Source of the DNA: a virus
DNA length: 64,000 nt
Direction: 5' to 3' (one strand)
IMG/VR virus record: IMGVR_UViG_3300045988_074874
Shown here: positions 2,831 through 55,216 of the stretch, in pieces
Layout: every line of letters begins with the position of its first letter
Numbering within the stretch: the stretch's first letter is position 1
Position numbers and translations under genes: made by a program
The notes under the pieces: generated by a model
What the model saw: the letters and a program-made list of their open reading frames with translations, nothing else
What the model was told of the DNA's origin: nothing
The model's database searches: none

Positions 2831-3270
2831 GATTACCATTATCGCAGTAGCAATTAATATTCTGATATTTACTACATTAGCTGCATTTTTAATGAGCCGG
2901 AATTACAAAGGCAATCAATTTTCCACAGCATTCTTCTTGCTGATGGAAGCAGGAATGATACTTAATACAGTTTTGATTTGCACAGCGAGGTAAAAATATG
3001 CTTTTAGCATTTCCTACGAGGATTATTCCGTTTTTTATCATAGAACGGGTTAAACCTATAATTAAACCGGAAGGATACGCTTACCCGATTGTGGAGCGGT
3101 ACGCAAGCAAATATTCTTTACATCCGACTTAGCGTTAAAAAATTTCTGTAGTCGATTATATTAAATTTGATTTCCTCCACATATATTGTTTGCATTACAG
3201 AAATAGTAATTATATCACACACAATTCTTTCTCCTGCTTTTGTGATGGTGCGGAGTGGGAGAAAGATTTT

Positions 3271-3342
3271 AGGGCTATCGCCAAAAGGTAAGGTAACGGA
3301 CTTTGATTCCGTCATGTGTGGGTTCGAATCCCACTAGCCCCG
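3271..3342 (+). tRNA. tRNA-Gln (anticodon TTG)
   Basis: Hand-folded cloverleaf: acceptor AGGGCTA/TAGCCCC, anticodon stem ACGGA/TCCGT with loop CTTTGAT, T-arm GTGGG-TTCGAAT-CCCAC. Confidence 0.55.
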
Positions 3343-3398
3343 TTTGCTAGGTTGCGCATGTACCTGGCAATGGTTTATTTCACATAGACCCTCCGATA

Positions 3399-3451
3399 CC
3401 CATCTAGCTCAACGGAGCTGATTAAAGGGGCTTCAAATGTCCCGGATGGGA
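3399..3451 (+). other. tRNA-like mini-element lacking an anticodon arm (acceptor + D-like hairpin + T-arm)
   Basis: 7-bp acceptor CCCATCT/GGATGGG, hairpin AGCTC-AACG-GAGCT, T-arm GGGGC-TTCAAAT-GTCCC; only 53 nt. Confidence 0.35.
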
Positions 3452-3572
3452 ATCCTCGTAAAAACGAGGTACTCTATTTTGCCATGACCTTTGTTGCGGC
3501 TGGTGGCAAAGAACTGCAACAGTAGAAGCAAATCAACTCAAAATCTGCAATCCGGGAGACTGCTTCTACTCA

Positions 3573-3645
3573 GGAAATTTAGTTCAGCGGTTAGAACGCC
3601 CGGCTCATAACCGGGAAGCCCTGAGTTCGAATCTCAGAATTTCCA
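3573..3645 (+). tRNA. tRNA-Met/fMet/Ile2 (anticodon CAT)
   Basis: Clean cloverleaf: GGAAATT acceptor, GTTC-AGCGGTTAGAAC D-arm, CCCGG-CTCATAA-CCGGG anticodon arm, CTGAG-TTCGAAT-CTCAG T-arm. Confidence 0.8.
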
Positions 3646-4022
3646 TTTCTTCCGTATGCTACCCATCCGTTTTATGGGCAGAAAAAACTTTCGGATGAGC
3701 GTATGTGAATCAGAATGAGCAAAGGTATGTAACGGCATAGGCTTGTGCTTGATCTGATTTCCCGTCCGATAAATGCTTCTTAGTTTCAATAAGTCATCAT
3801 AAGTGCACGTTGATGGCAGGGAGTTTTCAAGAAGCATAAAGTTAAAAGGCATAATAATATCCGAAACAACTCCGTGGAGCATACCACGGTTACCAAAAAG
3901 CCGTCAGGTTGGCAAAAATACGATAGTCCAAGTTATGAAAAATTGCCTAGTGGAAAGCATAACACGAAAAAATCATTGCTAACCCGGAACAATCTCCGGG
4001 TTCTGGGGGAATAATACCATAA

Positions 4023-4075
4023 GGGGCAGAGGGCTGATTAACAGTACCAGAGCGGTTCAACTCCGCATTCTCCCA
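4023..4075 (+). other. possible second anticodon-arm-less tRNA-like element
   Basis: GGGGCAG acceptor-like 5' end, GCTG-ATTAA-CAGT hairpin, GCGG-TTCAACT-CCGC T-arm-like, TTCTCCC 3' end; pairing imperfect. Confidence 0.25.
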
Positions 4076-4175
4076 TTATCCAATCTGTAAATATTGGATA
4101 TGAGGAAGCTGTCCGAGATGTAAGAAACAGTCGGCTTGTGGATTGCCGGTACAAATACGCTGAAAATCCACACAA

Positions 4176-4247
4176 GGCAGGGTAGAGAAGTGGAATCTCA
4201 CAAGACTCATATTCTTGAGAACGGCGGTTCGAATCCGCCTCCTGCAA
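4176..4247 (+). tRNA. tRNA with CAT anticodon (Met/Ile2 type), G1-A72 mismatch
   Basis: GAGA-AGTGGAA-TCTC D-arm, CAAGA-CTCATAT-TCTTG anticodon arm, GGCGG-TTCGAAT-CCGCC T-arm, acceptor GGCAGGG/TCCTGCA. Confidence 0.55.
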
Positions 4248-4532
4248 CTTAATCCGCTTAGAGTTAAGTTGTTTGTATACAGGCGGTCTATGCCTCTGGT
4301 GGATTTACGCATGAGCGTAAACGTACAACTCACTAGGCGTTTGCGTAAAAAACTTTTTAGAGAGATGAGACCACTGGCCGTAAGAAGTGATAGTCGGCAA
4401 TTCTAAAAGAACCATCTAGTTCATGCGTTTTACGATGGAAAGGTTAATGCTTATCTGGATATTTGTGTCCAGTCCGAAAGCATATGAAGTGAAAATCAAC
4501 TCAGTTTTTTTAACTGACCGTGACAAGCGGTA

Positions 4533-4601
4533 CGGAATGTAGCTCAGGTGGGAGAGCGCACTACAAAAGTGAGGTCGCAGGTTCGAATCCTGCCTTTCCG
4601 A
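4533..4601 (+). ncRNA. tRNA-like RNA with truncated/non-canonical anticodon arm (69 nt)
   Basis: Canonical acceptor, D-arm (GCTC-AGGTGGGA-GAGC) and T-arm (GCAGG-TTCGAAT-CCTGC) but only 18 nt where 21-22 are needed, giving a 3-4 bp anticodon stem and a 5-7 nt loop. Confidence 0.4.
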
Positions 4602-41537: not shown

Positions 41538-41580
41538 AGAGATGGTCTGTTTCTTCCTTGACAGACCATCTCTTTTGCTT
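41538..41580. terminator. bidirectional rho-independent terminator between endolysin and the minus-strand island
   Basis: AGAGATGGTCTG-N12-CAGACCATCTCT flanked by an A-run upstream and TTTTGCTT downstream. Confidence 0.6.
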
Positions 41581-42287
41581 CACTTAATAATGTATTCCCA
41601 ATATTGATTTTTAATATCCGCATATCCGTTCTTACGAATCAACACTTTATCCCCGGAAAACATCGTAAAATCAGAATCCAGCTTTTGCACATAATCCATG
41701 TTTACAACAAATGACTTATGGCAACGCAAAAACCGTTTATCAAGGTAAGGCTCAACCGACTTTAAAGTTGCATACATACTGTGCATAATCCCGTTCGTGC
41801 AATGAACAAAAACTTGCTTATCCCGTGCTTCGAGGTACTCGATTTTGTTCAATGGAATCCTTATAATGCAATCTCTGTGTCTGATTGTGAGCATCTTGTG
41901 TTTCATATCACTCAAGGTATTGTCAATCATAGAAAACATTCTTCCGTGTTCATTTCCCTTGATGATATAATGCGTAAATTCAACATCCAACGCATCAAAA
42001 ACAAAATCCTTGTGAGCTGTCCAGAAAGCAATTTTGCCCTTATATCCACACTCTCGGAGTTCTTTGGCAATATCCACGCCATTTTCGTTTTTAAGTATTA
42101 CATCCAAGACAATCATATCAAACCATTTTCCGTCCTTAACATCATCTATCAAGGGTTCCCCACTGAAATAACCGTCTATCGTATAATTCCGGTCACCGTT
42201 TTGCTTCAAAAACGGTTCAATCCGATGCTTAAAATACTCAACCTGTAGTTCACAATCGTCACAAATAGCAATTTTCATAGTAATCAC
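41580..42287 (-). CDS. LytTR-family response regulator (REC + LytTR DNA-binding domain)
   Basis: N-terminal IAICDDCELQ...MIVLDVIL receiver with Asp, C-terminal LytTR-type domain; no cognate kinase in window. Confidence 0.75.
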   Translation of the reverse strand: MITMKIAICDDCELQVEYFKHRIEPFLKQNGDRNYTIDGYFSGEPLIDDVKDGKWFDMIVLDVILKNENGVDIAKELRECGYKGKIAFWTAHKDFVFDALDVEFTHYIIKGNEHGRMFSMIDNTLSDMKHKMLTIRHRDCIIRIPLNKIEYLEARDKQVFVHCTNGIMHSMYATLKSVEPYLDKRFLRCHKSFVVNMDYVQKLDSDFTMFSGDKVLIRKNGYADIKNQYWEYIIK

Positions 42288-43914: not shown

Positions 43915-44214
43915 ATGCTTTTTAAAAGAAAGAAAAAAGCAAAGCCTTACCGCATAGATACATCGCAGAAAGGCTTTGAGTACGTTGGTATTAAATTGAC
44001 AGATCAACAGTTCCAAGACGTATGTGATTTGAATTTGTTGTGGTCGGATGAAAGAAAAGATATTCCTGCTTTTAATATGCTTGTCCTTATGAAAGTATTA
44101 GGATTACTGCCACCCGAAATGGTGTGCGATAGCAGAAGCAGCGACACCGATAATAATTCCAGTTCCGATATCTACGAGACGTTGGAACGTAAATTTGGTA
44201 AAGTTATAAGATAA
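43915..44214 (+). CDS. hypothetical protein (3' end overlaps convergent minus-strand gene)
   Basis: RBS GGAGGTGAAATA; overlaps 44104-44481(-) by 110 nt. Confidence 0.3.
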   Translation: MLFKRKKKAKPYRIDTSQKGFEYVGIKLTDQQFQDVCDLNLLWSDERKDIPAFNMLVLMKVLGLLPPEMVCDSRSSDTDNNSSSDIYETLERKFGKVIR

Positions 44215-44481
44215 TTTTATCGCAAATCGTTTGGTTTTTTCGGATTTTGATGGATATGCTTTATGATATTCGGCAATTCCTAAATCTGTGATGTGTATAT
44301 CGTAAGTAGAAGTCTGAATTGTATAATGCTTGGAATTTAATGAATCGAGTAATGGTATTAGTGAAAAATCATCACAGTCCAGTTTATATCTAACCGTTAC
44401 GAGCATAGCATTATGTTCTTCGTTCATACATTCAATAATTGCTTTTAATACAGCTGCTTCTGATAACATAACGCACCTCAC
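44104..44481 (-). CDS. hypothetical protein with C-terminal TM helix, coupled to repressor gene
   Basis: ATGA overlap with the XRE gene stop. Confidence 0.4.
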   Translation of the reverse strand: MRCVMLSEAAVLKAIIECMNEEHNAMLVTVRYKLDCDDFSLIPLLDSLNSKHYTIQTSTYDIHITDLGIAEYHKAYPSKSEKTKRFAIKLSYNFTKFTFQRLVDIGTGIIIGVAASAIAHHFGWQ

Positions 44482-44819
44482 TCACTTAAAAGATTAATCA
44501 ATTCTATAATGTGTTTCTTTTTGGCATCGGACAGTCCGAAGTATTTCTTTAATGCATCGGACAGTTCGGTGTCTTTTCTTATCTGTGCAATCAAATGTGC
44601 AGATTCATCGGAAAAATCTTGTTCCGGCTCTTTTCCTGTCATCAGATAATCTACAGATACGTGAAAGAAATCTGCGATTTTTCGCAAATTTTCAGCATTA
44701 GGAGTACTTTTATCCAGTTTGCTTGCGTATCCCTTTGCGAAACCACATTCAGTTTCTAACGCATTTAATGAAGTTTTCTGTTCTTTACAAAGTATTTTAA
44801 CTCTTTCTCGTAATGTCAT
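44478..44819 (-). CDS. XRE-family HTH transcriptional regulator (CI-like repressor candidate)
   Basis: HTH_3 pattern (TSLNALETECGFAKGYASKL); divergent from the Cro-like gene. Confidence 0.65.
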   Translation of the reverse strand: MTLRERVKILCKEQKTSLNALETECGFAKGYASKLDKSTPNAENLRKIADFFHVSVDYLMTGKEPEQDFSDESAHLIAQIRKDTELSDALKKYFGLSDAKKKHIIELINLLSE

Positions 44820-44862
44820 TTTTGTTTCCTTTCAATTCTGAAAAAAAACGCAAAAATAGTAC

Positions 44863-44890
44863 TTGACATTCTGAAAATATCGCTTATAAT
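44863..44890 (+). promoter_or_regulatory. consensus sigma70 promoter (TTGACA-16-TATAAT) reading rightward toward cro-like gene
   Basis: Exact hexamers; spacer contains operator half-site TTCTGAAAATA. Confidence 0.5.
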
Positions 44891-44977
44891 GTAACTATCA
44901 GTACTGAAAATAACGCAACAAAATAAGGACATAAAGAATGCCCAAGTTTATTTTTTATGATTTTGTGTGGTAGCTTG

Positions 44978-45006
44978 ATTATAGAATATATTCAGAAGTA
45001 TGTCAA
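44978..45006 (-). promoter_or_regulatory. consensus sigma70 promoter (TTGACA-17-TATAAT) on minus strand reading leftward toward repressor gene; face-to-face with the 44863 promoter
   Basis: TGTCAA at 45001-45006 and ATTATA at 44978-44983 on the + strand. Confidence 0.5.
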
Positions 45007-45050
45007 TAATGTTGTGATATTTTCAGTAAAAATATGAAAGGAGGTATCGA

Positions 45051-45242
45051 ATGATGATTTACGACAAGGTGAAAGCCTTGGCAAAAAAGCGAAATGTTTC
45101 CATTCGCAAAATCGAAATAGATTGCGGATTTTCGCAAGGTAGTGTTTGTAAATGGAATGAAGTTTCTCCATCTGCCGAAAAAGTGAAAAAGGTCGCTGAT
45201 TATTTAAAAACTTCGGTAGATGAAATTTTGAAATCCGATTAA
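45051..45242 (+). CDS. Cro-like XRE-family HTH protein
   Basis: 63 aa, HTH_3 pattern, RBS AAAGGAGGT. Confidence 0.6.
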   Translation: MMIYDKVKALAKKRNVSIRKIEIDCGFSQGSVCKWNEVSPSAEKVKKVADYLKTSVDEILKSD

Positions 45243-45258
45243 CAAGAAAAGGAGATAT

Positions 45259-54196: not shown

Positions 54197-55216
54197 ATGG
54201 ATAAAGAAATTGTTGCAAATTTTGAGAATTTATATCGTTCTTACAAAAAGGTTAAGAGCGGTAAGAAATTTAATTCAGGTACTGCAAGATTTTCTAATTT
54301 GTCTCTTGAAGGCATTCATCTCTTGAAGGAACAATTGGAAAGTCAAACGTATACCATAAATCCGTATAATAAATTTCAAATTCATGAGCCAAAAGAGCGA
54401 ACGATAGAATCATGTGCATTTAAGGACAAAGTAGTGCAGAGATGCTTTTCTGATTACATTCTGACACCAAAACTTGAAAATATCCTGATTAAATGGAACA
54501 CTGCCGGGCAGCAAGGAAAAGGACAACATATGGCGATGGATGGATTAAGAGATCAGATGTTGAATTTCTATAAAAGAAATGGAATGAATAGTTGGATTGT
54601 AAAATGTGATATTCATAAATATTTTTACAACATAGACCATGAAATTATGAAAGACGTGCTGGACTATTATTTTGATGATAGTTTTACGACTTGGCTGAAT
54701 CATTTGTTTATCGATAGTACAGATAATCCGGGAATTCCATTAGGGAATCAGGTAAATCAGAAATACGCTCTTTTGTTGTTACATTCATTGGATCAAATGA
54801 TAACGATTGAATTTGGAAATCCATATTACGGACGATACAACGATGATTTTTATGTGATTTGTAAAACGAAAGAAGATGCCAGAGAAATTCTTGAAGCAAT
54901 CCGAATGATGATTGAAAGCCTTAGACTGGAACTAAACCCTAAATCACAAATTGTACCGTTTCGCATGGGATTGTGTTATCTGGGCTTTCATCATTACGTG
55001 ACTGATAAAGGAAAATATATCAGAAAATTGCGTGGCGATAAGAAAAGAAAAACACAGAGAAAAATCCGCAGGTGGGTACGGACAGTAAATGACGGAAAGA
55101 TGTCAATGGAAAAATTTAATGAAAAGTATGGAGCATGTAAGAACCATATGCTTCATGGGGACTGCATTAAATTATGCCACAGTATGGATTTAGAAATTGA
55201 AAGGAGAATGAAGTGA
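54197..55216 (+). CDS. reverse transcriptase, DGR type
   Basis: Motifs: VKCDIHKYFYNIDHEIM (RT motif 1/2), PLGNQVNQ (DGR-type I/LGxxxSQ variant), RYNDDFYV (YxDD), LELNPKSQI. Confidence 0.8.
   Translation: MDKEIVANFENLYRSYKKVKSGKKFNSGTARFSNLSLEGIHLLKEQLESQTYTINPYNKFQIHEPKERTIESCAFKDKVVQRCFSDYILTPKLENILIKWNTAGQQGKGQHMAMDGLRDQMLNFYKRNGMNSWIVKCDIHKYFYNIDHEIMKDVLDYYFDDSFTTWLNHLFIDSTDNPGIPLGNQVNQKYALLLLHSLDQMITIEFGNPYYGRYNDDFYVICKTKEDAREILEAIRMMIESLRLELNPKSQIVPFRMGLCYLGFHHYVTDKGKYIRKLRGDKKRKTQRKIRRWVRTVNDGKMSMEKFNEKYGACKNHMLHGDCIKLCHSMDLEIERRMK

Follow-up and report, generated by a model that had tools for sequence, protein, structure and literature searches.

The window, that is, the whole stretch of 64,000 nucleotides analysed here, comes from a gut phage of about 78 kb whose closest relatives are in Lachnospiraceae; related viral contigs in IMG/VR measure about 77-80 kb. 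Almost all open reading frames (ORFs) of the window run rightward, and a cassette encoding a cI-like repressor belongs to the sole leftward block. Downstream of this cassette, the same block contains a LytTR-type response regulator composed of receiver and LytTR domains (41580-42287, minus strand), which may be a lysogenic-conversion or sensing gene. No integrase was found among the window ORFs scanned; the integrase gene may lie outside the window, or the phage may persist without integrating. Elsewhere, four tRNA genes (Gln, Met, Met and Cys) are clustered at 3270-4601 on the plus strand, and a DUF7666 protein (46297-47274, plus strand) carries a repeat array (46653-47061) of 15 tandem 27-nt units with 95% matches, which encodes the 9-residue repeat NTG[NDY][RC]SAAT and makes this early protein unusual in being repetitive. 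A reverse transcriptase (RVT_1, 339 aa, 54197-55216, plus strand) follows two adjacent ORFs in the block 52934-55216, the first of them (52934-53539) matching DUF6273 and the second (53536-54159) giving no match. A 77-nt repeat with 78% identity links 53424-53500 to 54026-54101; its mismatches are not adenine-specific, so that no pair could clearly be taken as template and variable repeat of a diversity-generating retroelement.

The genes of the lysogeny locus are the following.

44104-44481, minus strand: ORF of 125 aa from the ORF list, overlapping the cI stop codon and ending in a hydrophobic C-terminus
44478-44819, minus strand: cI-like repressor of 113 aa, probably SinR-like, with an N-terminal XRE HTH and a presumably helical C-terminal part (Pfam and PDB matches)
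45051-45242, plus strand: Cro-like HTH protein of 63 aa (weak Pfam matches to HTH_26 and HTH_3)
45259-46041, plus strand: AntA/KilAC antirepressor, second gene of the rightward operon (Pfam ANT, 3.6e-35; AntA, 1.3e-21)

The repressor matches Pfam HTH_3 with an E-value of 7.9e-5 and 23.1 bits, against a cut-off of 23, and otherwise only HTH_19. Its sequence matches in the PDB are SinR and one unnamed regulator: Bacillus SinR (1b0n) aligns over residues 4-94 at an E-value of only 2e-3, and 9sf2 is matched at 1.4e-5. In the same search the 186 CI chain gave no match at E-values up to 0.01, and no Pfam match to Peptidase_S24, the LexA-like self-cleavage domain, was obtained for the 113 residues. 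The Cro-like protein is a paralogue of the DNA-binding domain of the repressor (35% identity to cI residues 1-60, E 1e-16). Beside the repressor no ImmA/IrrE metalloprotease was detected, and the 125-aa ORF has no Pfam match; it is probably co-transcribed with cI and so co-expressed in lysogens, and could be a superinfection-exclusion candidate. A blastn search of deposited phage genomes with 44100-46100 retrieved matches to the antirepressor only (66-76% identity), none of them covering the switch.

Between the divergent cI and cro genes lies an intergenic region of 231 bp holding both predicted promoters, named P_R and P_L, together with the repeats considered below as operators.

44836-44851, plus strand: putative operator O0, TTCTGAAAAAAAACGC, at -61 to -46 of P_R and beside the cI ribosome-binding site
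44863-44890, plus strand: P_R, predicted rightward lytic (cro) promoter, TTGACA-16-TATAAT, 12/12, start near 44897
44869-44883, plus strand: putative operator O1, TTCTGAAAATATCGC, zero-mismatch, filling the P_R spacer (-28 to -14)
44897-44971, both strands: stretch of 75 nt predicted to be transcribed off both strands, by arithmetic from the two -10 hexamers
44902-44920, plus strand: putative operator O2, TACTGAAAATAACGC plus AACA, its 15-mer (44902-44916) at +6 to +20 of P_R
44924-44944, minus strand: conserved central block with a weak hairpin, GGGCAT/ATGTCC (-6.9 kcal/mol), then a T-rich run
44997-44983, minus strand: putative operator O4, TTCTGAATATATTCT, 11/15 to consensus, filling the P_L spacer (-26 to -12)
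45006-44978, minus strand: P_L, predicted leftward cI promoter, TTGACA-17-TATAAT, 12/12, start near 44971
45010-45028, minus strand: putative operator O3, TACTGAAAATATCAC plus AACA, its 15-mer (45028-45014) at -57 to -43 of P_L

Both promoters proposed in the initial annotation are thus present, each with perfect hexamers. They are the sole 12/12 sigma-70-type matches on either strand of the 64-kb window, in which two further matches reach 11/12; shuffling (30 windows) gave a mean of 0.13 such perfect matches per window, and here the two lie 116 bp apart at the repressor/cro junction. Start sites were placed by assuming the usual 7 nt from the -10 hexamer, which predicts leaders of 154 nt for cro and 152 nt for cI and reproduces the transcript overlap of about 75 nt that had been proposed. 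P_R adjoins cI and P_L adjoins cro; the two therefore point at each other, and polymerases leaving either must cross the opposing promoter. The gap between the cI ATG and the -35 hexamer of P_R is 43 nt, partly taken up by the ribosome-binding site, which leaves no room for a back-to-back cI promoter; the gap between the cro start and P_L is 44 nt. Near cI, every other leftward promoter candidate scores below 9/12 in the immunity types A, A', B and D described below, and an alternative cI promoter close to the gene was rejected for that reason; the best candidate, GTTACA-16-CAGAAT, scores 8/12 and overlaps P_R. The contrast with the back-to-back lambda type drawn in the initial annotation holds good, since each promoter adjoins the opposite gene and cI has no alternative of at least 9/12. 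Sequence and comparative evidence likewise agree on a lysogeny switch region with facing promoters, which are predictions.

The repeats show a regular arrangement around these promoters. CTGAAAATA occurs in three exact copies in 64 kb, all within 44871-45026, and the 15-mer WWCTGAAAAWAWCRC has zero-mismatch sites in the window only at 44869, at 44902 and, on the minus strand, at 45014-45028. The starts of O0, O1 and O2 are spaced by 33 bp, O2 and O3 (44902-44920 and 45010-45028) form the arms of a 19-nt inverted repeat, and O3 sits 22 nt ahead of the cro ribosome-binding site. At both promoters one site occupies the spacer and another precedes the -35 hexamer; P_R has a third, just past its start. 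O0 carries a run of A residues in the middle of the motif, 8 in this phage against 7 (15 nt) in all 14 other distinct relatives. The four motifs first listed for the region are all there; a fifth and weaker copy, O4 in the P_L spacer, had been missed. Their label of half-sites is a misnomer: the motif measures 15 bp and has a weak dyad (CTGA-N5-TCRC), and in other immunity types the corresponding sites are plainly palindromic (CTAAG-N4-CTTAG and TAGGA-N2-TCCGA), for which reasons each copy is best read as a complete, if putative, operator.

Comparison with relatives allowed the layout to be separated from the sequence that fills it. Scanning IMG/VR with the repressor and Cro-like proteins yielded 71 loci, which were sorted into immunity types: type A has the same repeats as the window, and at least four further types (A', B, C and D) keep the geometry with repeats of their own. 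In type A' (Cro 81% identical) the A repeats and both promoters are kept and changes fall mainly in the linkers, and in type D (Cro 52% identical) a related repeat, TCTGAAwwAwTTaCG, accompanies a P_R of 12/12 and a P_L of 11/12. The repressor HTH differs in type B, where Cro identity drops to 26%; here the repeat is CTAAGAAAnCTTAG, found at five positions, one of them the spacer of a leftward promoter that is a perfect TTGACA-17-TATAAT. Type C represents a further HTH type, with the repeat TTAGGAAATCCGAAA at equivalent positions and a perfect P_R; its P_L is a hand-picked 9/12 match, and an equally weak leftward candidate overlaps P_R. The P_R hexamers are conserved across A', B, C and D, and the position of P_L is kept throughout, with scores of 11-12/12 in A', B and D and 9/12 in C. 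The distance from P_R to the repressor start codon is 46-50 nt in A', B, C and D, and the predicted overlap ranges over 62-75 nt across types, resting in C on the weaker hand-picked promoter. Types B, C and D each have their own repeat at the O0 position and a good copy in the P_L spacer. The initial annotation had proposed comparing promoter arrangement among related prophages, and the face-to-face arrangement is indeed kept in A', B, C and D. Not one of the 24 promoter-hexamer columns varies among 15 distinct intergenic sequences of types A and A', nor do O1 and the +1 region of P_L (44967-44977); of the linker columns, 18%-43% vary.

The repressors of these loci are mosaics in which HTH types A, B and C are combined with C-terminal types 1 and 2. 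Repeat sequence follows the N-terminal HTH type whatever the C-terminal type, and because it tracks the HTH in these natural domain swaps, the repeats are likely operators of that HTH; this bears out, at the level of co-variation, the earlier reading that the XRE repressor and/or Cro would use these repeats as operators. The mosaic junction falls at a conserved KIADFFHVSVDYLMTGKEPE segment in the repressor genes of five loci (L003, L019, L023, L033 and L039). This suggests recombination at the KIADFFHVSVDYLMTGKEPE linker, and a C-terminal domain with a swappable partner of its own, perhaps an antirepressor.

The prevalence of the layout was assessed by a repressor-alignment scan of one genome per bacterial species. 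The 80 loci recovered came mostly from Lachnospiraceae and other Clostridia, with a few from Streptococcus, and none was above 61% identity, the nearest being from Lachnospiraceae. A small divergent ORF was present in 67 of the 80, and in 31 of those a promoter of at least 10/12 was found on each strand; these pairs were face-to-face in every case (31/31) and back-to-back in none. On inspection, each surveyed locus had its own repeat at equivalent positions. Words from the P_R spacer recur at the other operator positions of 35 loci above the level in shuffles, a measure that is noisy in AT-rich DNA and is also raised in a central control segment. Six deposited phage genomes that encode related repressors were examined in addition. 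SpSL1, 315.6, LP-030-2 and bIL312 (three isolated phages and, for bIL312, a prophage of IL1403) are face-to-face with at least 10/12 on both strands, Dulem virus 39 is likewise face-to-face, and phiETA2 has the rightward promoter only. The identical scanner called TP901-1, phi11 and A2 back-to-back, with promoters beside their own genes, and the call for A2 agrees with the promoter and operator features of its record; the 31-to-0 result is therefore no artefact of the scanner. As defined by predicted promoters, two architectural classes exist among Gram-positive cI/cro-type switches, and for a large family the predicted face-to-face layout is the rule.

Several features of the transcribed region were considered as possible RNA elements. 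The P_L transcript start ACCACACAAA (44967-44977) belongs to the invariant positions in close relatives, and versions of it, ACCA(C/G)AC..AAA, lie shortly after the leftward -10 hexamer in many loci whose operators are unrelated (L072-L145). On the transcribed strand, CATAGTTAAA is found at the equivalent place in SpSL1, LP-030-2, bIL312 and phiETA2, and 315.6 has a variant; its carriers are thus among the Streptococcus, Listeria, Lactococcus and Staphylococcus phages examined. Both leaders fold somewhat better than shuffled sequences (z about -2.5), the cro leader being predicted to pair O2 with O3 and the cI leader to pair O0 with the ribosome-binding site; as these stems are built from operator repeats, they do not constitute independent evidence of RNA function. 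Among known RNA families only RAGATH-30 was matched in the region, at 22.6 bits, which is far under its cut-off of 59.5 and was taken as chance. A leader peptide encoded by a mini-ORF at 44938 (MPKFIFYDFVW) was discarded, its frame and sequence changing in A' and the ORF being absent from B, C and D. The hairpin at 44943-44927 was also rejected as a terminator in the P_L leader, being weak and without conservation outside type A.

We favour, with more confidence than doubt, the reading of this locus as a bistable immunity switch built on two facing consensus promoters, with 186-like logic and lambda-like parts. P_R would read through its leader into cro, ant and the early genes, and P_L through its own into cI and the ORF beyond. 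The SinR-like repressor would bind the in-phase O0, O1 and O2, located upstream of, inside and just past P_R, and thereby shut P_R; with P_R shut, neither polymerase traffic nor antisense RNA would act against P_L, whose polymerases would reach cI unopposed, and repressor synthesis would become self-sustaining. O4 and O3 mirror O1 and O0 and would provide negative autoregulation of P_L at high repressor levels; they are also likely targets of Cro, through which P_L would be shut in lytic growth. Starting from what was obtained directly (sequences, statistical rarity, conservation and operator/HTH co-variation), we infer promoter activity, the assignment of proteins to sites and the contribution of interference.

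Some features of the locus complicate this scheme. Repressor on O0-O2 would lie ahead of polymerases coming from P_L and could halt them; since more than 92% of polymerases read through lambda CI and Cro bound at a promoter (PMC5001618), repressor at these sites need not block its own synthesis. Moreover, O3 equals O1 and O2 in its fit to the consensus, so that P_L might be repressed as readily as P_R, at odds with a simple self-sustaining loop. Modelling indicates that sitting-duck interference peaks with unequal promoter strengths and collisions at long distances (PMC5001618); as both promoters are of consensus type and their starts are 75 nt apart, interference could here be modest.

This modelling lends weight to the strongest alternative, which we nevertheless regard as rather unlikely, namely that operator occupancy alone sets the switch in a lambda-like manner, repressor and Cro competing for the five sites, with the convergent geometry contributing little by way of interference or antisense RNA and perhaps being tolerated or serving to give both genes long leaders. 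With promoters of equal consensus strength and starts so close together, the model predicts weak sitting-duck and collision interference (PMC5001618), and the operator in the spacer of each promoter would be sufficient for direct repression. However, the face-to-face layout is found in all 31 loci and in at least five immunity types although the sequence between the promoters has diverged, which argues for selection on the geometry itself; nor is the geometry forced, because back-to-back switches occur in the same host groups. Quite improbable, in our estimation, is a second alternative, by which transcription from P_L would stop at the hairpin at 44943-44927 and yield nothing but a short antisense RNA that damps cro, cI being expressed from a weak promoter overlapping P_R in an effectively lambda-like arrangement. 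The minus-strand hairpin with its T-rich run does resemble a terminator (-6.9 kcal/mol, z -2.35), the block that bears it is conserved in A and A', and the 8/12 candidate overlapping P_R could be such a promoter. Yet the hairpin is a short one with 6 pairs, of which one is G-U, lies outside the minimum-energy fold of the full leader, is marginal in A' (-3.5 kcal/mol, z 0.07) and is missing from B, C and D, and alternative cI promoters of at least 9/12 are lacking in A, A', B and D. That one or both consensus matches arose by chance and are not promoters would fit an AT-rich intergenic region and the fact that hexamer scans do not show function, but with 0.13 matches expected per 64 kb, a pair 116 bp apart at this very junction, and hexamers invariant in relatives and kept across immunity types, it is extremely improbable.

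The preferred reading, a switch governed by facing promoters, invites comparison with known systems. The likeness to P2 and 186 proposed in the initial annotation stands for geometry and logic and fails for the proteins, which are unrelated according to Pfam, the PDB matches and the Cro paralogy. The lysogenic promoter of 186 is held down by interference from the strong lytic promoter opposite, and repressor bound to three operators set at regular intervals at the lytic promoter relieves the interference with its own promoter (PMC3675496). As in 186 and P2 (pR/pL and Pe/Pc), the lytic and lysogenic promoters are directed at one another and give briefly overlapping transcripts, in the present case as predicted from sequence, and as in 186 three regularly spaced operators accompany the lytic promoter. 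In contrast, the repressor is here a 113-aa, probably SinR-like XRE protein and no homologue of the 186 CI wheel or of P2 C, and the second regulator is a paralogue of the repressor HTH instead of an excisionase of the Apl/Cox type. The phage further differs from 186 in that both promoters are consensus by sequence, unlike the strong pR and weak pL of 186; in that operators start 33 bp (three turns) apart and not two turns; and in the mirrored operator pair at the leftward promoter. We therefore propose a switch that is predicted to work like those of 186 and P2 without belonging to that family.

With lambda-type switches the locus shares divergent cI and cro HTH genes and copies of one 15-bp motif, five in number, that repressor and Cro would both bind; unlike in lambda, the repressor is devoid of the S24 self-cleavage domain. 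The switches of A2, TP901-1 and phi11 resemble it in their divergent HTH repressor and cro-like genes, in the several operators within a short intergenic region and in the antirepressor gene downstream of cro, but they are arranged back-to-back in 147-174 bp with promoters beside their own genes, compared with 231 bp and promoters beside the opposite genes here. A convergent-promoter switch is also known from another mobile element of Firmicutes, the Enterococcus plasmid pCF10, in which prgQ/prgX forms a bistable system of two convergent promoters with mutual inhibition by interference and antisense RNA. That system controls plasmid conjugation through a peptide-sensing RRNPP regulator, has a much longer overlap and has no cI/Cro pair. 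The related switches of SpSL1 and LP-030-2 carry an ImmA/DUF955 gene, as in ImmR/ImmA modules, whereas none was detected in the present cassette.

Within the host group itself the idea of convergent promoters is not new, since it was noted in Clostridium clostridioforme LM41: in prophages phi5 and phi12 a program predicted a convergent pair between a leftward ImmR-like HTH gene and a rightward HTH gene, and the authors of that 2024 report pointed to 186-like interference (PMC11318856). That case differs in being a software prediction for two prophages, without operators, conservation analysis or experiments, and in the presence of an ImmA-like protease gene, for which Pfam detected no equivalent here. 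In the limited literature that was covered, we came across no experimental work describing cI/cro promoters that face each other in phages of Firmicutes, and no published analysis of the operators, conservation or prevalence of such switches. The present analysis adds a corrected operator anatomy and the predicted layout as a rule for a large family.

A bolder reading, which we put forward tentatively and hold to be somewhat doubtful, is that face-to-face promoters are the standard design of a very large class of Firmicutes cI/Cro switches, found in phages of Lachnospiraceae, Streptococcus, Listeria and Lactococcus. Interference of two near-consensus promoters with each other, and antisense pairing of their RNAs, would then supply much of the bistability in place of cooperative positive autoregulation by the repressor, and the class would be distinct both from the back-to-back class of lambda, A2 and TP901-1 and from that of 186 and P2.

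Little experimental work exists on lysis/lysogeny switches in phages of gut Firmicutes, and annotators tend to assume the back-to-back arrangement of lambda for cI/cro pairs. The data point to a second widespread architecture, in which the promoters lie beside the opposite genes and transcription of the two arms would collide. If this is true, whether prophages of many gut, oral and dairy bacteria stay stable or are induced would depend in part on transcriptional interference and antisense RNA. The share of interference in bistability has so far been studied mainly in 186, in lambda PR/PRE and in synthetic constructs, and the family would offer a natural test bed, with many immunity types on one geometry and both promoters near consensus. 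Predictable positions of promoters and operators may also serve prophage annotation and provide orthogonal repressor/operator sets.
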